Shown: piece by piece, positions 3,553 to 12,516 of the stretch
Numbering within the stretch: position 1 is the stretch's first letter
Layout: every line of letters starts with the position of its first letter
From: an archaeon GW2011_AR15
GTDB taxonomy: Archaea > Nanobdellota > Nanobdellia > Woesearchaeales > GW2011-AR15
Length of the DNA: 64,000 nt
Direction: 5' to 3'
Assembly: GCA_000830295.1 (NCBI GenBank)
Contig: CP010425.1
Span: forward strand, 32,001 to 96,000
Notes under the pieces: generated by a model
What the model saw: the letters and a program-made list of their open reading frames with translations, nothing else
Told to the model about the DNA's origin: nothing
Databases searched by the model: none
Program-made: the position numbers and the translations under genes

Positions 3553-4056
3553 ATGGAAGACATTCTTCTCGTGGATGAGGATGACAACATAATCGGGAAA
3601 GAAGAAAAGCTCAGCGCCCATAAATCAGGGAAATTGCACAGGGCATTCTCTGTTTTTGTGTTCAACTCAAAAAAAGAGCTTCTTATACAAAAAAGAGCAC
3701 AGGGCAAGTATCATTCAGCCGGCCTGTGGTCCAACACCTGCTGCAGCCATCCGGTTACTGAGGACACTAAAAAAGAGGCTGAAGAAAGGCTAAAAGAGGA
3801 GATGGGGTTCAGCTGTGAGCTGGAGGAATTATTCAGCTTCATATATGAAATAGAGTTTAAGAACGGGTTAAAAGAGCATGAGTTTGACCATGTCTTTAAG
3901 GGAAAATATAACGGGCCTGTAATGCCTAATATAAAAGAGGTCATGAACTATAAGTGGGTTGCTCCTGAAAAACTTCATGAAGATATTAAAAAGAACCCCG
4001 GCAGCTACACGCACTGGCTGAAGCTCTGCCTGAGCAGGGTCATTTCTTTTTCCTGA
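3553..4056 (+). CDS. idi: Isopentenyl-diphosphate delta-isomerase type 1
   Basis: [24 protein letters not shown]. Confidence 0.95.
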
Positions 4057-4426
4057 ACTCCAGGGCAGCGGAATTAATGCAGTACCTTTTTCCTGTCGAA
4101 ATTGGTCCGTCATCAAAAACATGGCCTAAGTGGCCACCGCATTTCCTGCAGGTGACTTCTGTCCTTACCATGCCGTGGCTTTCATCCCTCCTCAGCTCAA
4201 CAGTCTCAGGCATTGATTCAAAAAAACTCGGCCAACCGCAGCCCGAGTCGAATTTTGCATCAGAAAAAAATAATTTCTGGCCGCAGCCAGCGCAAACATA
4301 AAAGCCTTTTTCTTTATGGAGATAAAATTTTCCTGTAAAGGGAAACTCTGTCCCTTTCTCTCTAAGTATGTGATACTGCTCTTTGGTCAGCTTCTTTTTC
4401 CAGTCTTTGTCTGGCATTGCAGGCAT
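4040..4426 (-). CDS. msrB: Peptide methionine sulfoxide reductase MsrB
   Basis: [34 protein letters not shown]; start moved to internal ATG (4426 or 4417) to avoid overlap with folA. Confidence 0.95.
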
Positions 4427-4448
4427 GATTAAAACATAGGCCGAGAAT

Positions 4449-4946
4449 TTATATAGTTTTTCCCTTCTTCCTCTCATAAACCCTGAAATAATAGTCATAC
4501 GGGTTCTTCTCGTTCTTTGGCCCTTTTTCTTCAGAGATAAGTTTCCACTCTTTCATGTCAAACTCAGGGAAGAAAATGTTTGCGTCAAAATTATGGTCGA
4601 TGTAAGTCATGTATAATTTACCAACAGTGGGCAGAAACTGCCTGTAGATGGATGCCCCGCCCATGATAAAAGCCTCATCATCATGCTTCAGCGTAGCAAG
4701 TGCGCCCTGTATTGAAATGAAGACCTCGCAGCCGGGGATATTCATCTTCTCAAAGCTGAGGATGATATTCCTCCTTCCCGGCAGGGGCTTGCCGAGCGAC
4801 CTGAATGTTGTAAGCCCCATGATGACAGGCTTGCCCATTGTTGTTTTCTTGAAATGCTTGAAGTCCTCAGGGATATGCCATGGTATCTGGAGATCTTTCC
4901 CAAGCTCCCTGTTTTTTCCCATTGCCCAGATCATAGAAAGTGCCAT
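4449..4946 (-). CDS. folA: Dihydrofolate reductase
   Basis: [30 protein letters not shown]; adjacent to thyA. Confidence 0.95.
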
Positions 4947-4955
4947 TCTAATTAC

Positions 4956-5849
4956 CTATACTGCCACATCGCCTTTTATTGCAGGATGCGGGTCATATCC
5001 GGTGAGCTCGAAATCCTCAAACCTGAAATCAAATATTGATTTCACCTTTGGATTTATTTTCATTACGGGAAGTTTCTTCGGCTCCCTTGTAAGCTGCAAT
5101 TTCACTTGGTCAATATGGTTGAGGTAAATATGCGCATCCCCGAAGGTGTGGACAAAATCGCCCGGCTCAAGCCCGCAGACCTGTGCCACCATCATTGTCA
5201 ATAGCGCGTATGAAGCTATGTTGAAAGGCACTCCCAAGAACACATCTGCGCTTCTTTGATACAGCTGGCAGCTCAGTTTCCCGTCAACAACATAAAACTG
5301 GAATAATGTATGGCAGGGCGGCAATCCTGCCTTTGACATTTCCTCAACTTCAGGGGGGTTCCATGCTGAAACTATAAGCCTTCTTCCGTTCGGGCTCTCC
5401 CTGTCCTTCTTTACTTTCTTTATTTCATCAATAACCCACTTTATTTGGTCAACGCCGTTGAAATCCCTCCACTGCTTTCCGTAGACAGGGCCGAGCTCTC
5501 CCCATTTTTCCGCAAATTTCTCATCCTGCGCAACTTTCTCTGCAAATCCCTTTATATCTTCACCCCGGAATTCAGCACTTTCTTTATACCTTCTGTATGG
5601 CCATGCATCCCAGATATGGACATTGTTCTGCGCCAGGTATCTCAGGTTAGTGTCTCCCTGCAAAAACCACAGGAGCTCATGTATTATTCCCCTAAGATAC
5701 ACTTTTTTTGTGGTAAGAAGCGGGAATCTCTCCTGGAGGCTGAACCTCATCTGGTAGCCGAAGACGCTTATCGTGCCTGTGCCTGTCCTGTCTTCTTTCT
5801 TTACTCCGTTATCGAGGATATGCCTGGCAAGCCTGAGGTATTGTTCCAT
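4956..5849 (-). CDS. thyA: Thymidylate synthase ThyA
   Basis: [32 protein letters not shown]. Confidence 0.98.
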
Positions 5850-5903: not shown

Positions 5904-6488
5904 CTATGGCATCCACTTGGTGTCTTCCTTTCCCTGCCTGTGGCTGGCTAAACGGGCTGCTGTGAAAAGATAGTCTGAAAGCCTGTTCATGTATTTCAGG
6001 ATGTTCTTTTCTATCTCCTCTTCCCTCATCAGCCTTATTATTTGTCTCTCCGCCCTCCTGCATACGACCCTTGCCATGTGAAGCAGTGCGCTTTCTTCAG
6101 TGCCTCCTGCAAGTATAAAATTCTTCAGCACAGGAAGCTCTTCCTCATACATGTCAATAAGCCTTTCAAGCTTCTTGACCATATCCTCTGTCACCCTTGG
6201 GATCTTGTTTGCCATCGGGTTTCCGTCTATCTTTGACTGTGAAAGCACAGAGGGGTATGCGAGATTTGAGGAGATTGCGTGCAGGTCTTTCTGTATATCC
6301 ATAAGATGCGATTTAAGGTCCTCCTCTTCCAGCTTTACTATGGCAAGGCCCAAGAATGCATTGGTCTCGTCGAGCACTCCGTATGCCTCTACTCTCGTTG
6401 TATCCTTCAGTGTCCTTGAGCCGTCGCAGAGTGAAGTCTCTCCTGTATCCCCTCTTTTAGTGTAGATTTTTATCTTCCTATCTGCCAA
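5904..6488 (-). CDS. pduO: ATP:cob(I)alamin adenosyltransferase, PduO type
   Basis: KIYTKRGDTGET, AYGVLDE.N, AR.VCRRAER, NRLSDYLF. Confidence 0.93.
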   Translation of the reverse strand: MADRKIKIYTKRGDTGETSLCDGSRTLKDTTRVEAYGVLDETNAFLGLAIVKLEEEDLKSHLMDIQKDLHAISSNLAYPSVLSQSKIDGNPMANKIPRVTEDMVKKLERLIDMYEEELPVLKNFILAGGTEESALLHMARVVCRRAERQIIRLMREEEIEKNILKYMNRLSDYLFTAARLASHRQGKEDTKWMP

Positions 6489-8499
6489 TGTTTATCACCT
6501 GCTCGCTCAGGCTGCCTTCCCTGTAAACTGTTATGCCCCTGCAGCCGAGCTCATATGCCAGCAGGAAGGATTTCTTTATGTCCTCGGTGGTTGAGCTCTT
6601 TTGGAAATTTATTGTCTTTGAGATTGCATTGTCGACATGCTTCTGGAAAACTGACTGCATCTTTATGTGCCACTCAGGCTTTATGTCATAGGCAGTCACA
6701 AATATCTTCTTCATATCCTCGGGAAGCGCAAGGTTCTCAAGCGAGTTTGACTGGATTATCTTCCTTATTATATCCTCTGAGAAATCAATGCCGTGCTCTT
6801 TTGAGACTTCCTCAAGCACCTTGTTCACATGCGTTATCTCTGTGTTCCCAAGGACTTTCCTTGTATATCCGAGCGCAAAGTTGGGCTCTATCCCCGGAGA
6901 GGTGTCTGCAAGTATGCTCCTTGCTCCTGTAGGCGCGATTGCTATCAGCGAGCAGTTCCTCAGCTTTGCCTTGTTGCAGAATACGCTTTGCTTCCACATC
7001 GGGAAGACTCCTTTTTCCTCTGCCAGCTTCTCTGACTCATTCCTGGCTGTTGATGATATGAACTTCATGACCTTCTCAGCAACCGCAAGCCCCTCCTCGG
7101 AATTATAGGGAATCCTGAGTTTGTAGAGCATATCCGCAAATCCAAGCACTCCCAGCCCTATTCTTCTGTTGCCCTTGGCCATGTCCTCTATCTTTTTCAC
7201 AGGGAACCTGCCAAGGTCGACTATATTGTCCAAAAATCTTACAGAAGACCTTATGACTTTCTCGAGGTTCTTCCATCTTATCTGCTTCCTCAGCACGAAC
7301 CTTGAAAGGTTTATTGCGCCGAGGTTCCCTGCGTCATAAGGAAGCAGGAGCTGGTCTCCGCACGGGTCGGTTGTTTCTATCTTCCCCATATCTGGGAAAG
7401 GATTTCCTTCATTTATCCTGTCTATGAAAAGCACTCCGGGGTCCCCTGTCTTCCATGCCATCGTAACAATGAGGTGGAATATGTTGTTGGCATCAGCCAT
7501 CTCAATTACTTCGCCGGTTGCAGGGTTCTTTATTGCATATTCCTTCCTTTTCTTGACAGCTTCCATGAACTCGTCTGTCATCTCGACAGATATATTGAAG
7601 TTCTTTATTTCCCCCCTCTCTTTCATAGTTATGAATTCTATTATGTCAGGGTGTTCCACGCTGAGCGAGCCCATGTTGGCAGGCTTCCTGTTTCCCGGGA
7701 CAACTGTAAGGTCAGATGCATGGTCAAACAATTTTATGAATGCTATGGGCCCTGATGAAAATCCTGCTGTTGTCTCGAGCACCTGTCCTTTCGGCCTCAG
7801 CCTTGAAAATGAGAATCCTGTGCCTCCCCCCAGCCTCTGTATAAGGGCTTTGTCATAGAGTGCCCTGAAAATCCCTTTCATGCTGTCCTCAACAGGAATT
7901 ACAAAGCTGCTGTAGAGCATCCTGTTTGATGTGCCTGCATTCGCAAGTATCCTTCCTGAAGGTATAAATTCAAGCGAAGACAATATTGTAAAGAAATCTT
8001 CCTCTATCTCCTCTGTCTGCTTCTCGCTTTTCTTATATTTCTTTTCTACAGAAGCGACTGCTTTTGCTACTCTCCTGAACATCTCTTTCGGCGTTTCAAT
8101 GATATTGCTTTTCCTGTCCCTTGCCAGGTATCTGGATTTTGCTATCAGCAGCCCGTTCACGCTCAGCCTTGAGTCATCCATCCTGCCGAGTATGCTCTGT
8201 TTTAGTTTTCTTAATTCAGTCCTTTTCTGCCTGTAGAGGATGAATGCCTTTGCCATCTCAGACTGGCCGTTCTCCATAAGGACTTTCTCAACAATGTCCT
8301 GCACTTCCTCCACAGAGATGATGTGGCCGTCCTGGGCTTTCTTTTCTATCTCAAGGATGACTTTTCCGGCAATCATATCAGGGAGCTCCTGATTATCTAT
8401 ATTTACAGCCAGCATCGTCTTCTCTATTGCAGAAGAAACCTTGGCAGGGTCAAAGTCTGCTATTGTCCCGTCCCTTTTCCTTATTTTAGAAATCCCCAT
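6478..8499 (-). CDS. Class II ribonucleotide reductase paralog with N-terminal ATP cone and degenerate active site
   Basis: ATP cone KRDG...VEEVQD.VE...KAFILYR; RNR core PSGRILANAG, GGGTG, RRIGLG, AIAPTG, ISKTIN; but SSFV, TDPCGD, AGNLG replace NCFV, TNPCxE, CNLG. Confidence 0.9.
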   Translation of the reverse strand: MGISKIRKRDGTIADFDPAKVSSAIEKTMLAVNIDNQELPDMIAGKVILEIEKKAQDGHIISVEEVQDIVEKVLMENGQSEMAKAFILYRQKRTELRKLKQSILGRMDDSRLSVNGLLIAKSRYLARDRKSNIIETPKEMFRRVAKAVASVEKKYKKSEKQTEEIEEDFFTILSSLEFIPSGRILANAGTSNRMLYSSFVIPVEDSMKGIFRALYDKALIQRLGGGTGFSFSRLRPKGQVLETTAGFSSGPIAFIKLFDHASDLTVVPGNRKPANMGSLSVEHPDIIEFITMKERGEIKNFNISVEMTDEFMEAVKKRKEYAIKNPATGEVIEMADANNIFHLIVTMAWKTGDPGVLFIDRINEGNPFPDMGKIETTDPCGDQLLLPYDAGNLGAINLSRFVLRKQIRWKNLEKVIRSSVRFLDNIVDLGRFPVKKIEDMAKGNRRIGLGVLGFADMLYKLRIPYNSEEGLAVAEKVMKFISSTARNESEKLAEEKGVFPMWKQSVFCNKAKLRNCSLIAIAPTGARSILADTSPGIEPNFALGYTRKVLGNTEITHVNKVLEEVSKEHGIDFSEDIIRKIIQSNSLENLALPEDMKKIFVTAYDIKPEWHIKMQSVFQKHVDNAISKTINFQKSSTTEDIKKSFLLAYELGCRGITVYREGSLSEQVINIGR

Positions 8500-8552
8500 C
8501 TATCAGCCCCCGATATAATAAAGAAATAATAGAAGTATTTTTAAAAGTTGTT

Positions 8553-8616
8553 ATTGAAAATAAAGGCATTTTCAATTCCGAAACCCGAATCATAAAATTG
8601 GTAAGTTCGGGTTTCG
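8553..8616. repeat. Two adjacent inverted repeats between the RNR genes
   Basis: ATTGAAAAT(8553-61)/ATTTTCAAT(8568-76); CGAAACCCGAA(8579-89)/TTCGGGTTTCG(8606-16), abutting the nrdJ stop codon. Confidence 0.8.
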
Positions 8617-10653
8617 CTATACAGTGCATACGCTGAAGCCGCAGTCCGGACATAGCACACACCCTTCCTGCTTGACAAGAGGCGCATCGCATTCCGGGCA
8701 GTTGGTCATCTGCTTTTTGTCGAAACTCACCATGATTTTGCCTTCCGGCACCTTGTCATGCGCGGTTTTTCCTGACGATTCCACAACTATCACCTGTTCA
8801 GGCATCCCTTCAACTTCCAGCTCTTCTGTCTGGACAACTATTGTTTCCTCGGTCTCGACAACAACAGGCTCCGCTGAGCTCCTGGCCTCCTTCTTGACCT
8901 CTTTTATGTTCAGCACCTGGTTGCCCCTGCTTCCGTCCCTGTAGACTGTGCATCCCTTGCAGCCTGTCTTCCAGGCAAGCATGTATCCTTTCTTGACGTC
9001 ATCTATGGTTGCGCTTGTGGCGAAATTGATCGTCTTTGAGACTGCGTTTGTCACATATTTCTGGAATGCTGCCTGCATAAGTATGTGCTCCTCAGCTGAT
9101 ATGTTGAAAGAAACCTCAAACACTTTTTTCACATCTTCAGGGACTTCATCCAGGCCGTCAAGCGTTCCCTGCTCTGCAATCTTTTTCATAAGCTCTTCAG
9201 TATAGAATCCCCTTTCCCTGGCAACCCTCTCGAAGTGCTTATTCACGTAAGTGAACTGCTCTTTTATTGAATGGCTGTTCTTTATGTAGGCAAGGGCAAA
9301 GTTGGGCTCGCATCCTCCGCTTGTATCCCCGACCATGCTGAGCGTCCCTGTCGGAGCAATTGCTGTTATGGCGCAGTTCCTAACTCTCCTGCCCTCTTTT
9401 TCAAATTCGCTGCCTTTCCATGCGGGAAAAACTTCCCTTTCCCTTGCAAGCTCTTCTGACATCTTCCAGCCTTCCTCATCAATAACTCTCATGACTTCTG
9501 AAGCCACCATCCTGCCTTCCTCGCTTGAATAGGGAAGCCCGAGCTGGTAGAGAAGGTCTGCAAATCCCAATACTCCAAGACCTATGCGCCTTGTCTTCTT
9601 GGCCATCCTGGTTATCTTCTCTGTAGGGTATTCCCCCGCATCTATGACATTGTCCAGGAAATGGATTGCTGTCCTGGTTGTCTTCCTGAGCTTATTCCAG
9701 TCAATCTCAATCCTGCCGTTGACTTTCCTGACCATCCTGTCAAGGTTTATTGAGCCGAGGTTGCATACCTCATAATCAAGAAGCCATATTTCCGCACAGG
9801 GATTTGTAGCCTTGAATAAGCCAATGTGCTTGATTTTATTGTGCCTGTTTGCTGTGTCTATGAAAAGCACGCCCGGCTCCCCTGTCTTCCAGGCGTGATA
9901 TGCAATTTTGTTAAAGAGCTCTTTTGCCCTTACTGTTCTGGCAACCTGCATTGTGTGCGGATCTATGAGATCATACTCACCGTCAGCCTCGACTGCTTTC
10001 ATGAATTTGTCGTCAAGCATGACTGAGATATTGAAATTTGTAAGCTGGGTAAGGTCATCCTTTGCTGTTATGAAATGCTCAATGTCAGGGTGGCTGATGT
10101 GGAATGTCCCCATCTGGGCCCCTCTCCTGTTGCCCTGCATTATTGTGCTGCACATTACATCAAATACCCTCATGAATGACAGTGGGCCTGAAGCAATCCC
10201 GCTGCATCCTGAAACCCATGAGCCGCCCGGCCTGAGTGTTGAGAAGCAGTATCCGACCCCGCCCCCCCTTTTCTGGATAAGCGCTGCCTCCTTGACTGCC
10301 TGGAATATGCCTTCCATGCTGTCCTCAACAGGGATTACAAAGCAGTTCGCAAGATTCTTTACAGGTGTGCCTGCATTTGCGATTGTCCTCCCGCCAGGGA
10401 TGAACTCAAGCTTTGTAAGCATGTCAAGAAATTCTTTTTCTGTCTTTTCAACTTCCCCGTCTGGCCTGTACACTGCGTCCGGGCCTGCAATCTCCTTTGC
10501 TATTCTTTCGAACATGTCCAGAGGGGTCTCTACGACAGTCCCGTCTGCGTCCCTTTTCAGGTATTTTGCAAATATTATCCTAAGCTGGTTCTCGTTCAGC
10601 CCCAGTTTTTCTTCTTCACTGATGCTTTCCATAAATGTTTTGTAATCCTGCAT
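8617..10653 (-). CDS. nrdJ: Adenosylcobalamin-dependent (class II) ribonucleotide reductase, catalytically intact, no ATP cone, C-terminal Cys-rich Zn ribbon
   Basis: NCFV, TNPCAE, CNLGSINL, AIAPTGT, C-terminal CPEC...CVLCPDCG.S.C; ATG at 10653 preceded by SD GGTGAG (ORF track starts at GTG 10665). Confidence 0.95.
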   Translation of the reverse strand: MQDYKTFMESISEEEKLGLNENQLRIIFAKYLKRDADGTVVETPLDMFERIAKEIAGPDAVYRPDGEVEKTEKEFLDMLTKLEFIPGGRTIANAGTPVKNLANCFVIPVEDSMEGIFQAVKEAALIQKRGGGVGYCFSTLRPGGSWVSGCSGIASGPLSFMRVFDVMCSTIMQGNRRGAQMGTFHISHPDIEHFITAKDDLTQLTNFNISVMLDDKFMKAVEADGEYDLIDPHTMQVARTVRAKELFNKIAYHAWKTGEPGVLFIDTANRHNKIKHIGLFKATNPCAEIWLLDYEVCNLGSINLDRMVRKVNGRIEIDWNKLRKTTRTAIHFLDNVIDAGEYPTEKITRMAKKTRRIGLGVLGFADLLYQLGLPYSSEEGRMVASEVMRVIDEEGWKMSEELAREREVFPAWKGSEFEKEGRRVRNCAITAIAPTGTLSMVGDTSGGCEPNFALAYIKNSHSIKEQFTYVNKHFERVARERGFYTEELMKKIAEQGTLDGLDEVPEDVKKVFEVSFNISAEEHILMQAAFQKYVTNAVSKTINFATSATIDDVKKGYMLAWKTGCKGCTVYRDGSRGNQVLNIKEVKKEARSSAEPVVVETEETIVVQTEELEVEGMPEQVIVVESSGKTAHDKVPEGKIMVSFDKKQMTNCPECDAPLVKQEGCVLCPDCGFSVCTV

Positions 10654-10704
10654 TTTTCCGCTCACCGTTCTCTTTAGTTTTTGTTATCCTTGAAATATAC
10701 AAAC

Positions 10705-10752
10705 ACACAATATGTTGTGTCCCAACATATGAGAATCTACAATATGTTGTGT
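10705..10752. promoter_or_regulatory. Tandem NrdR-box-like operators upstream of nrdJ
   Basis: ACACAATATGTTGTGT (10705-20) and CTACAATATGTTGTGT (10737-52), 32 bp apart; fits the consensus acaCwAtATaTwGtgt; TATA TTTAAATA on minus strand at 10777-84. Confidence 0.85.
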
Positions 10753-11146: not shown

Positions 11147-12025
11147 TTATCTGAACTGGACTGATGGGTTCAGGTTTATAAAATTTTCTTTCCCCATGCC
11201 AGAAAAAATAATGTCAAGGAATCCTTTCTTCTCTTCCAGCTCAAAAGCAGAGACTGTTATGTTATGCCTGGACGCTACAAAATCCAGCACATCCTTCCTT
11301 GTGCCCAGCTCATCAACCAGGCCGAGGTCTTTTGCTTCGCTTCCGAGGAAAATCTGGCCTGTTGCAAGCCTCCTTACGCTGATAACGCTCATGTTCCTGT
11401 TCTCTGCGACTTCCTTTATGAAGAACTCATTCATCTTGTATATTATATCCTGGAATATCCTCCTCTCCTCTTCACTGGGCTCTTTGAAAGATGAGCCCAT
11501 GTCCTTGAGCTCGCCTGAGACATACCTCTGGTAGGTTATGTTGTATTCCTCGAGGAATCCGGAAAAGTCAAGGTAGGAGCCTATCACTCCTATGCTTCCT
11601 GTCAATGACATCCTGTTTGCATACACATAGTCTGTCGAGCTCGCGACCCAGTATGCTGCGCTTGTTCCCATATCCCTTATCAGGGCGATTGTTGTCCTGT
11701 TGGCTGATTTTATCCTCTGGGCTATCTCATCAGCAGCAACCCCTGAGCCGCCCGGTGAGTTTATGTCAAATATTATCGCCTTTACACCCATGCCCTCTGC
11801 CTTGTCTATGGCTGCTATTACTGCCTGGCTGGAGATTGTGTCGCCTGTCAGGCCGCTGCTCTCCTCTACGCCTATGACTCCGTGTATCGGGATTATGGCA
11901 ACATTACCTGTCCCAAGGCTCATATCAGGGCCGAACAGGAAGGATGTTGCAAAGCTTATAATCCAGAGTATCAAAAGTATCTTCAGGACCGGGAGTATCT
12001 TTTCCTTAAGGCCAGTTCCTATCAT
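11147..12025 (-). CDS. sppA: Signal peptide peptidase SppA (S49)
   Basis: INSPGG, SAAYWVAS, TGSIGV, GELKD, LGLVDELG; ATG overlaps stop of RDD gene. Confidence 0.93.
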   Translation of the reverse strand: MIGTGLKEKILPVLKILLILWIISFATSFLFGPDMSLGTGNVAIIPIHGVIGVEESSGLTGDTISSQAVIAAIDKAEGMGVKAIIFDINSPGGSGVAADEIAQRIKSANRTTIALIRDMGTSAAYWVASSTDYVYANRMSLTGSIGVIGSYLDFSGFLEEYNITYQRYVSGELKDMGSSFKEPSEEERRIFQDIIYKMNEFFIKEVAENRNMSVISVRRLATGQIFLGSEAKDLGLVDELGTRKDVLDFVASRHNITVSAFELEEKKGFLDIIFSGMGKENFINLNPSVQFR

Positions 12026-12516
12026 ATTGAGATCTCCTCTATGATTTTTGTTTTTGTCAGCCTGTCTGAAAGCCTGCTGCCTGTTATGAAAAGGTATGCG
12101 GGGTCTGCTATCCAGAGCAGCCACAAGGGAAAAACAGGGAAGCATGCAAGATTCCTTATTGCCACATTGAGAAAAGTTATCCTCTCTTTTTTCTCGGTCT
12201 GGAGCTTCAGCCTCATTATCATCTTCCCGGGCGTCTGGCCGAACTTCAGCTCGAATATCACAAAATATGCAAACACCAGAAGGAACATGACAGCAAATGC
12301 GGGAATCAGGGAATTTATTGCATCAGGATTTGCCGCGATATAATTATAGTTCTGCGTGAAATCCCGGCTCGTGGGAATAACCCTCTGCACAACCCCTGAA
12401 TACGGCATGAAAATCACGAACTGGATAATCAGGATATCAATGGCAAAAGACAATGTGCGCTTCCATGCAGGAGCGTTTGCAGTCATTACCCTTTTCTTGG
12501 GAAGATTCAGGTCCAT
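12022..12516 (-). CDS. RDD family membrane protein
   Basis: A..WKR...FAID, GQTPGK, L.D.L.KT. Confidence 0.9.
   Translation of the reverse strand: MDLNLPKKRVMTANAPAWKRTLSFAIDILIIQFVIFMPYSGVVQRVIPTSRDFTQNYNYIAANPDAINSLIPAFAVMFLLVFAYFVIFELKFGQTPGKMIMRLKLQTEKKERITFLNVAIRNLACFPVFPLWLLWIADPAYLFITGSRLSDRLTKTKIIEEISI

Follow-up and report, generated by a model that had tools for sequence, protein, structure and literature searches.

An ATP-cone NrdJ paralog without redox cysteines is paired with a cone-less class II ribonucleotide reductase in small archaea

We analyzed a 64,000-nt stretch of DNA from the archaeon GW2011_AR15 (contig CP010425.1, positions 32,001 to 96,000; hereafter, the window), in which two genes for class II ribonucleotide reductases (RNRs) of the NrdJ type adjoin each other on the minus strand. 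One encodes a catalytic NrdJ without an ATP cone. The other encodes a paralog, referred to below as the variant, which has lost the redox residues and the cysteine tail, carries a conserved ATP cone, is under purifying selection, obligately co-occurs with a cone-less catalytic NrdJ, and lies in an operon for deoxynucleoside triphosphate (dNTP) synthesis. Because of this co-occurrence, the absence of the cone from two lineages of partners, the conserved cone and missing tail of the variant, and the dNTP operon, we propose that the variant is a non-catalytic subunit that would regulate the cone-less NrdJ in a hetero-oligomer. We hold this proposal at about even confidence, and the association of the two proteins is something we infer from these patterns. 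The two genes and the parts of the variant discussed below are as follows.

8617-10653, minus strand: catalytic cone-less class II RNR (NrdJ), 678 amino acids, assigned by Pfam and alignment; an alternative GTG start lies at 10665
6478-8499, minus strand: ATP-cone NrdJ paralog (the variant) of the D-x-C-x-D family, 673 amino acids, without the redox cysteine pair and without a cysteine tail
8215-8487, minus strand: ATP-cone domain of the variant, residues 5-95 (Pfam PF03477)
7906-7908, minus strand: S198 codon of the variant, first redox cysteine site (alignment)
7678-7704, minus strand: loop 2 of the variant, VVPGNRKPA (alignment)
7354-7374, minus strand: finger-loop tip of the variant, T376-T-D378-P-C380-G-D382 (alignment)
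7327-7329, minus strand: G391 codon of the variant, second redox cysteine site (alignment)

Pfam detected only the two RNR domains and no cone in the catalytic protein, and an ATP cone followed by Ribonuc_red_lgN and Ribonuc_red_lgC (PF00317 and PF02867) in the variant. The cone of the variant scored 76.2 bits against PF03477 (cut-off 25.8) and matched profile positions 2-88 of 88, that is, the full length. The two proteins are 47% identical across 568 residues. We read five catalytic positions, which we take to be C225, N437, C439, E441, and C462 of the Escherichia coli enzyme in the usual numbering, from an alignment to Thermotoga maritima NrdJ and 183 canonical relatives. The catalytic protein has C-N-C-E-C at these positions (motifs NCFV, TNPCAE, and CNLGS), and the variant has S198-D378-C380-D382-G391 (SSFV, TDPCGD, and AGNLG). 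The D-P-C-G-D finger loop of the variant thus fails the class II motif N-P-C-x-E, with the proline and the radical cysteine retained. In loop 2, the catalytic copy has MQ-GNRRGA, and the variant has VVPGNRKPA. N437, C439, E441, and C462 are treated as required in a survey preprint (10.1101/2021.01.20.427478). The C terminus of the catalytic protein forms a six-cysteine, zinc-finger-type tail (C-x2-C-x9-C-x2-C-x2-C-x4-C), whose spacing is near that of the Cys-rich domain described by Loderer et al. 2017 (PMC5704485). The variant has a single cysteine in its final 45 residues and no tail, ending 10 residues past the last barrel strand (E655-660 in the AlphaFold2 (AF2) model). Both open reading frames (ORFs) are uninterrupted and lie on the minus strand. 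Every residue and domain detail given in an initial annotation, made from the DNA alone, proved to be present in the sequence.

The AF2 model of the variant (pLDDT, the predicted local distance difference test, 86.7) consists of the RNR all-alpha domain and the ten-stranded barrel, and its least confident part is the finger-loop tip, with pLDDT <50 at residues 379-389. T. maritima NrdJ is the best solved relative of both proteins (phmmer E value of 3e-114 for the variant) and also the best fold match of the model (1XJE/3O0O; Foldseek TM 0.75-0.83). The variant passes the NCBIfam equivalog TIGR02504 with 621.5 bits (cut-off 399.95), so this profile cannot separate it from active enzymes, which explains its public name, [quoted passage not shown]; in public annotation, it is carried as an ordinary NrdJ. 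It is not a member of NF005401 ("ribonucleotide reductase-like protein"), against which it scored 257 bits (cut-off 906).

We collected 44 D-x-C-x-D sequences and compared them with 183 C-N-C-E-C relatives. The two aspartates were present in 44/44 family members, compared to asparagine and glutamate in 183/183 canonical relatives; every member (44/44) had an ATP cone and none (0/44) had a cysteine tail. Because the residue pattern of the variant was found again in all 44 collected members, it is not due to chance. Of the 120 best-matching database sequences, the 26 nearest to the variant (63-99% identity) have SDCDG (23), IDCDS (2), or NDCDG (1) at the five positions, and further branches of the family, about 50-57% identical to the variant, read SDCDS, SDCDV, SDCDC, CDCDC, CDCDV, or CDCDS. 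Across the family, the first redox site is occupied by serine in 38 members, cysteine in 3, isoleucine in 2, and asparagine in 1, and the second by glycine in 25, serine in 12, valine in 5, and cysteine in 2. Such free variation at the two sites would be expected if reduction is gone, and it indicates relaxed constraint at the former redox cysteine positions.

In a FastTree phylogeny of 116 rows, the family formed one clade (43 rows; Shimodaira-Hasegawa (SH)-like support of 100) beside a pair of canonical cone-bearing NrdJs, and in a quick IQ-TREE run of 57 rows, it fell on one side of a branch with an SH-aLRT (SH-like approximate likelihood ratio test) value of 78. Members at or near the base of the family (CDCDC, CDCDS, and CDCDV), as well as the near neighbor CDCEC, retain one or both cysteines. 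Because these basal members still hold cysteines, the changes of asparagine and glutamate seem to have come earlier, with cysteine loss later and stepwise, in a basal branching order that is weakly supported. The two RNR genes of the window fall in different NrdJ lineages on the tree, which rules out a recent duplication.

The reading frame was intact in all 12 genomes of the host's own family with a complete copy of the variant. In the 11 genomes with both genes (55 pairs), the variant had a mean protein identity of 0.675 and a mean nonsynonymous divergence (dN) of 0.246, compared to 0.722 and 0.212 for the catalytic enzyme. Because synonymous divergence (dS) is saturated in most genome pairs, dN/dS is quoted for the closest pairs only; the least saturated pair gave 0.08/0.90 (~0.09) for the variant as compared to 0.08/0.70 for the catalytic gene. 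The variant is under purifying selection, with constraint nearly that of the catalytic enzyme. Selection for a new role, which the initial annotation had inferred from the substitutions, is therefore backed by a monophyletic family, by D-x-C-x-D in 44/44 members, and by purifying selection close to that of the catalytic copy. Within the S/D/D/G pattern that it had singled out, both aspartates are fixed (44/44) and the S and G sites are variable, at a dN/dS of ~0.09 and thus below 1. It had also reasoned that closest homologs with cysteines would point to recent decay; the 26 closest lack the redox pair, and one or both cysteines persist in a few members, such as CDCDC, and both in the neighbor CDCEC.

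Searches of wider collections returned mostly ordinary enzymes. The ESM Atlas search gave ordinary NrdJ clusters only, and the 150 top representatives from a profile search of a library clustered at 50% were mostly canonical or intein-bearing, with the odd motifs SSCEG, SSCEA, SDCET, and GITEC also turning up among them. In the published literature that we searched, we found no description of an ATP-cone NrdJ paralog lacking the cysteine pair; the RNRdb tables that supplement PMC5704485 and PMC8365446 may list such sequences.

We then examined 60 related genomes, 19 of them in the host's own family, and added the host genome to the own-family count. In twelve own-family genomes, a D-x-C-x-D variant is accompanied by a cone-less C-N-C-E-C NrdJ whose loop 2 reads MQ-GNRRGA. 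In a 13th, which also carries both genes, a contig end truncates the variant, and one genome (76% complete) has the catalytic copy only; in none of the own-family genomes did we find the variant alone. The remaining six have neither gene, and all six carry NrdD, the class III enzyme (G006, G008, G011, G014, G015, and G017). Among the own-family genomes with the pair, the only NrdD match was a 67-residue fragment in G009. As a separate observation, the NrdJ pair and NrdD exclude each other among own-family genomes, bar this fragment. Of the 12 genomes, 5 have the paired genes adjoining (0-0.85 kb), 2 have them 6.6 and 9.2 kb apart, and 3 have them on short contigs; an adjoining pair is also found on one further public contig (L057). 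In other branches of the family, three genomes (one CDCDS and two SDCDV) each encode a cone-less class II-like CNCEC enzyme of ~890 amino acids, two of them complete (889 amino acids) and one cut by a contig end (730 amino acids). These enzymes have C-N-C-E-C, P-G-G-R, a 165-residue insert, and no cone, and in one genome, the gene adjoins the variant. Thus, 15/15 genomes with a full-length family member carry a cone-less catalytic class II RNR, a count taken over related genomes that are not independent of each other.

Both types of partner have cone-bearing relatives. The 26 MQ-type cone-less partners form a clade (support 100) on a long stem, nested among five cone-bearing MQ-type NrdJs in both the FastTree and the IQ-TREE phylogeny. 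The 889-amino acid partner is 63% identical to a cone-bearing enzyme of 981 amino acids, and the alignment pairs its residue 8 with residue 92 of the latter, starting right after the cone. Thus, two catalytic lineages appear to be without a cone precisely where a cone-bearing dead paralog is present. That two partner lineages miss the cone of their relatives, together with the 15/15 pairing, gives strong comparative support to a cone acting in trans, for which the two proteins would have to interact physically. The initial annotation had raised this possibility and had suggested a check of whether adjacency to a cone-less nrdJ is conserved; co-occurrence held throughout and adjacency in only part of the genomes.

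Sequence conservation in the cone and in the core was assessed against canonical relatives. Across 106 canonical cones, 27 columns reach ≥90% conservation; the family retains 16 of these at ≥90% and the other 11 at 48-89%. The conserved charged residues of the cone are all retained except K20 (52%) and D10 (89%), and K8, R9, K27, E64, Q67, D68, E71, K84, R90, R93, and R97 are each found in ≥95% of the family. In the core, 156 canonical relatives share 160 columns with ≥95% conservation, of which 108 are retained in the family and 134 in the catalytic partner clade. The regions relaxed in the family are loop 1 (236-253), the first part of loop 2, and the distal phosphate-loop threonine (T524); the first three positions of loop 2 are variable, and the canonical Q and G are not retained. 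The barrel motifs GGGTGFSFS, SKTINF, and TVYR are kept, and the C-terminal barrel half (residues 440-673) has lost few columns, mostly to conservative changes. Also retained is the P-x-G-R motif of the apical phosphate loop, in 44/44 family members; it reads P-G-G-R in 27/27 catalytic partners and is assigned to the nucleoside triphosphate (NTP) type in PMC8365446.

The family has also acquired 16 new, family-specific conserved positions. Six of them (K217, R222, L257, H260, S262, and L264) lie in helices αA and αB, as assigned from the AF2 secondary structure, and the αA-loop 1-αB-loop 2 region, which makes up 13% of the core, holds 7 of the 16 substitutions (p=0.003). The catalytic partner clade shows 32 clade-specific substitutions at otherwise near-fixed sites, 14 of which fall in the same region (p=2.5e-5), and columns 262 and 278 are altered in both proteins. 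This clustering fits a re-fitted dimer or effector interface. The substitutions of the partner occupy protein positions 98-100, 129-136, 146-151, 167-168, 180-185, and 280-296 and include three new cysteines (C136, C150, and C168) and a tryptophan in place of the universal proline two residues past the catalytic glutamate.

The host genome is a single contig of 1.16 Mb (96.8% complete). On the minus strand, the gene order is cone-less NrdJ, ATP-cone paralog, PduO, ThyA, dihydrofolate reductase (DHFR), and MsrB. This operon, with ThyA and DHFR, provides a dNTP and deoxythymidine monophosphate (dTMP) context, which we count in favor of a role of the variant in RNR regulation. The surrounding features are as follows.

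4040-4498, minus strand: MsrB, longest ORF, overlapping the DHFR gene by 50 nt; the Pfam match begins at residue 37
4449-4946, minus strand: dihydrofolate reductase, downstream (Pfam)
4956-5849, minus strand: thymidylate synthase ThyA, downstream (Pfam)
5904-6488, minus strand: PduO-type cob(I)alamin adenosyltransferase (Pfam PF01923, TIGR00636); its 5′ end shares 11 nt with the 3′ end of the variant gene
8579-8616, minus strand: perfect inverted repeat of 11 bp immediately behind the stop of catalytic nrdJ, then a T-rich, TATA-like stretch before the start of the variant
10707-10720 and 10739-10752, minus strand: two identical 14-nt palindrome-like boxes, ACACAACATATTGT, upstream of catalytic nrdJ, with starts 32 nt apart
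11147-12145, minus strand: S49-family peptidase gene, upstream of catalytic nrdJ
L053:1333-1800, plus strand, elsewhere in the host genome: NrdR-like protein of 155 amino acids with a zinc ribbon and an ATP cone

The boxes upstream of catalytic nrdJ look like NrdR boxes, judged by what we take to be the consensus and spacing of such sites. A scan of the window found two exact copies and five matches at ≤2 mismatches (0.34 expected), and none of the five lies in front of the variant gene. A hidden cone upstream of the catalytic gene was ruled out, as only ~175 nt are available there and hold the NrdR-like boxes. The inverted repeat between the two RNR genes is a candidate terminator, with a candidate promoter behind it. 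We found no other RNR in the host genome, and its sole further ATP cone is that of NrdR. The true start of MsrB is probably further downstream than that of the longest ORF, because the Pfam match begins only at residue 37 and the longest ORF runs 50 nt into the DHFR gene. ThyA comes after PduO in six related loci too, and the S49-family peptidase gene is found upstream of catalytic nrdJ in four (L054, L058, L063, and L065).

In the arrangement that we favor, the variant and the catalytic NrdJ would form a hetero-oligomer, most simply an α-α′ dimer through the αA/αB bundle used by dimeric NrdJs. The cone of the variant would bind ATP or dATP and thereby switch the complex on or off. All reduction would be carried out by the catalytic subunit, which would be re-reduced by its own cysteine tail. 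Because the NTP-type phosphate pocket and the Asp-Cys-Asp finger loop are kept, the former active site of the variant probably still binds a nucleotide, and possibly adenosylcobalamin (AdoCbl), as a ligand rather than a substrate. As in a pseudo-enzyme partner, the chemistry is lost and the gene nevertheless stays under purifying selection, and the protein is always found alongside an active paralog. A complex prediction of the two cores (residues 190-673 of the variant and 96-590 of the catalytic protein, each with its own alignment) gave run scores of 0.23, 0.94, and 0.22; these cannot separate a heterodimer from a homodimer, and we counted them neither way.

Several observations weigh against a purely regulatory role. 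The variant retains the radical cysteine and the class II proline, and seven of its family-specific residues (S278, E306, T376, D378, D382, A395, and, in the distal phosphate loop, R527) are invariant in 44/44 members. Together with the invariant P-x-G-R loop, these make the pocket look remodeled for a ligand or for catalysis rather than eroded; a mere scaffold could do without this, and regulation leaves it unexplained. Loop 1 is relaxed in the variant, although in a heterodimer it would contribute to the effector site of the partner. PduO follows the variant, not the catalytic gene, even in the two genomes with the catalytic gene on another contig; in these 2 of the 12 genomes, the catalytic gene is not within 10 kb upstream of the variant. 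The rule of one cone per pair is broken in related odd variants, as one genome (G022) has two cones and another (G056) has a Cys-less variant as its sole RNR-like gene. Last, the relatedness of the paired genomes makes the true number of co-occurrence events much smaller than the counts.

Some of these observations would be accounted for if the variant were itself an AdoCbl-dependent thiyl-radical enzyme with a different chemistry on a nucleoside triphosphate, which we consider possible, if rather unlikely. Its reaction could consist of 3′-hydrogen abstraction followed by acid/base steps by D378, D382, and E306, as in a dehydratase or isomerase, or of reduction by an external reductant. C380 and the class II proline are invariant in the family, the Asn-to-Asp and Glu-to-Asp changes are fixed in 44/44 members instead of drifting, the charged residues E306 and R527 are new and invariant, the NTP-type loop is kept in 44/44 members, and barrel residues 440-673 are little altered. 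PduO is translationally coupled to the variant in 13/13 core-clade loci, including the window. Two further findings point the same way, namely, D/D members with both cysteines (CDCDC) and an SSCEG Cys-less variant of another lineage that is the sole RNR-like gene of a 97%-complete genome. However, relaxed loops 1 and 2 and a relaxed T524 would be odd in an enzyme with a defined nucleotide substrate, and the variant always comes with a class II catalytic partner and was missing in the relatives that use NrdD. Moreover, among the loci compared, the operon has no conserved additional enzyme that might act on a new product, and the model is at its least confident in the finger-loop tip (pLDDT <50 at 379-389). 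The particular version in which a non-reductive dehydration or isomerization of an NTP takes place in the acid-rich D378/D382/E306 pocket, with R527 as an extra phosphate-binding residue, gated by the cone and fed by its own adenosyltransferase, we regard as unlikely. Class III formate-type reduction still needs one bottom-face cysteine. It was ruled out because most family members hold neither cysteine, with serine at the first site in 38/44 and no cysteine at the second in 42/44.

The link to PduO bears on a further alternative, in which the variant would take AdoCbl from PduO and either hold it or pass it to the catalytic NrdJ under the gating of its cone. PduO lies directly downstream of the variant in 12/12 core-clade loci, or 13/13 with the window counted, with a gap or overlap of 7-339 nt (≤28 nt in 8 of the 12), so that the stop of the variant and the start of PduO overlap or are close in all of them. 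In the 80 loci fetched, a PduO homolog next to an RNR gene was found only in the core-clade loci and in one bacterial locus. The well-conserved C-terminal half of the barrel would suit such a role as well. On the other hand, the nrdJ-pduO pair may have been inherited from an ordinary ancestral ATP-cone NrdJ, and in the loci compared, members of the SDCDV and CDCDS branches had no PduO nearby. We know of no RNR with a cofactor-handling role, and we judge this alternative to be improbable; the PduO link may reflect either the inherited pair or a variant that still handles AdoCbl. The idea that the variant is a redundant, decaying copy without a function of its own, to which only the loss of the catalytic residues and tail would point, we consider next to impossible, as it is already contradicted by the tree with its deep and diverse family, the intact frame in 12/12 own-family genomes with a complete copy, a dN/dS of ~0.09, the 108/160 retained columns, and the 16 new conserved positions.

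Apart from the D-x-C-x-D family, genomes of the same order contain further odd or Cys-pair-less variants of separate origins: an SSCEG/SSCEA clade, ASCEA and SDCET beside the family, TDCSV, and CDCEA. The SSCEG ATP-cone NrdJ-like gene of G056 (L030:1498-3597, plus strand; L138:919-3018, plus strand) belongs to a separate clade and is the sole RNR-like gene found in this 97%-complete genome, in which no NrdD was found. G064 carries a TDCSV ATP-cone variant (L071:9327-11351, plus strand) and an 897-amino acid cone-less catalytic enzyme of the ~890-amino acid type (L151:1129-3822, minus strand); on the tree, this variant falls among canonical NrdJs and probably has a separate origin. CDCEA variants without a cone (L099:10073-11950 and L104:9977-11866, both plus strand) lie directly downstream of a cone-bearing catalytic NrdJ with a six-cysteine tail (1259 and 867 amino acids), which is the reverse distribution of the cone. 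In G039 (L042:941-6740, minus strand), three tandem NrdJ genes all read C-N-C-E-C, two of them with a cone and none with a six-cysteine tail, and loop 2 differs in each. In G044 (one contig, 99% complete) and others, we found no match to the variant or NrdD family, in a search that did not extend to the RNR barrel family; such genomes may be without any RNR. Together, these cases suggest that NrdJ copies have repeatedly been inactivated or re-purposed among these small archaea.

According to PMC11226230, every known class II RNR consists of a single protein and works as a monomer or a homodimer. If our proposal is true, this class would gain a new subunit architecture, a conserved α-α′ pair whose dead copy carries the sensor. 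In the literature searched, we found no description of the mechanism by which ATP cones control class II enzymes, and here the sensing and the catalytic parts are on separate polypeptides and can thus be mixed and titrated. If the pocket is instead catalytic, the family would represent new B12 chemistry on an RNR scaffold. In either case, it shows a stepwise re-use of an enzyme, with asparagine and glutamate apparently changed first and cysteines later, and it bears on the puzzle, raised in PMC8365446, of why many genomes hold several NrdJ genes. An RNR survey (PASV preprint 10.1101/2021.01.20.427478) drops sequences without the four key residues (286/29,401). Naming of family members as active reductases by hidden Markov models, together with such filtering, leaves the family both mis-annotated and overlooked.

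Among known systems, the dimeric class II NrdJ of T. maritima shares with the variant the fold, the domain order, the radical cysteine and class II proline, and most barrel motifs. The variant differs from it by lacking the redox cysteine pair and the re-reducing tail, by having aspartates in place of asparagine and glutamate, by its relaxed loops 1 and 2, and by the presence of an ATP cone. In Pseudomonas aeruginosa, a class II RNR is reportedly split over two adjacent genes, NrdJa and NrdJb, into a catalytic part and a tail. The window, in contrast, has two complete cores side by side that can be aligned over 568 residues and is not a split core. The R1 homologs of betaherpesviruses have kept the fold of the RNR large subunit after loss of the catalytic residues. 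Unlike the variant, they have a viral role outside nucleotide metabolism, with neither an active RNR partner nor an ATP-cone logic.

A closer parallel might be the yeast Rnr2-Rnr4 heterodimer of class I small subunits, in which Rnr4 is said to have lost the residues for chemistry, to be kept under selection, and to work only with its active sister. The variant is likewise a paralog under selection without the chemistry residues, and a dependence on its sister is what we propose. However, Rnr4 belongs to the radical-generating β subunit rather than the catalytic α subunit and has no allosteric domain, and the heterodimer, proven in yeast, is inferred here. Within class II, Loderer et al. 2017 (PMC5704485) describe genomes with two NrdJd, only one of which has the Cys-rich C-terminal domain, and show that inter-subunit electron transfer is possible. 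These pairs resemble the window in having two NrdJ genes with the tail on one only; unlike the variant, their tail-less copies are not reported, in the account given there of such pairs, as lacking active-site residues or as the sole bearer of a cone. ATP cones occur in <10% of class II enzymes (PMC11226230), and the same source cites a class I system, that of L. blandensis (PDB 5OLK), with the cone on NrdB. There, activity is controlled from a cone off the catalytic polypeptide, as we propose for the variant; the carrier of the cone in L. blandensis, however, is an active class I radical generator, whereas in the window, it is a dead copy of the catalytic subunit.

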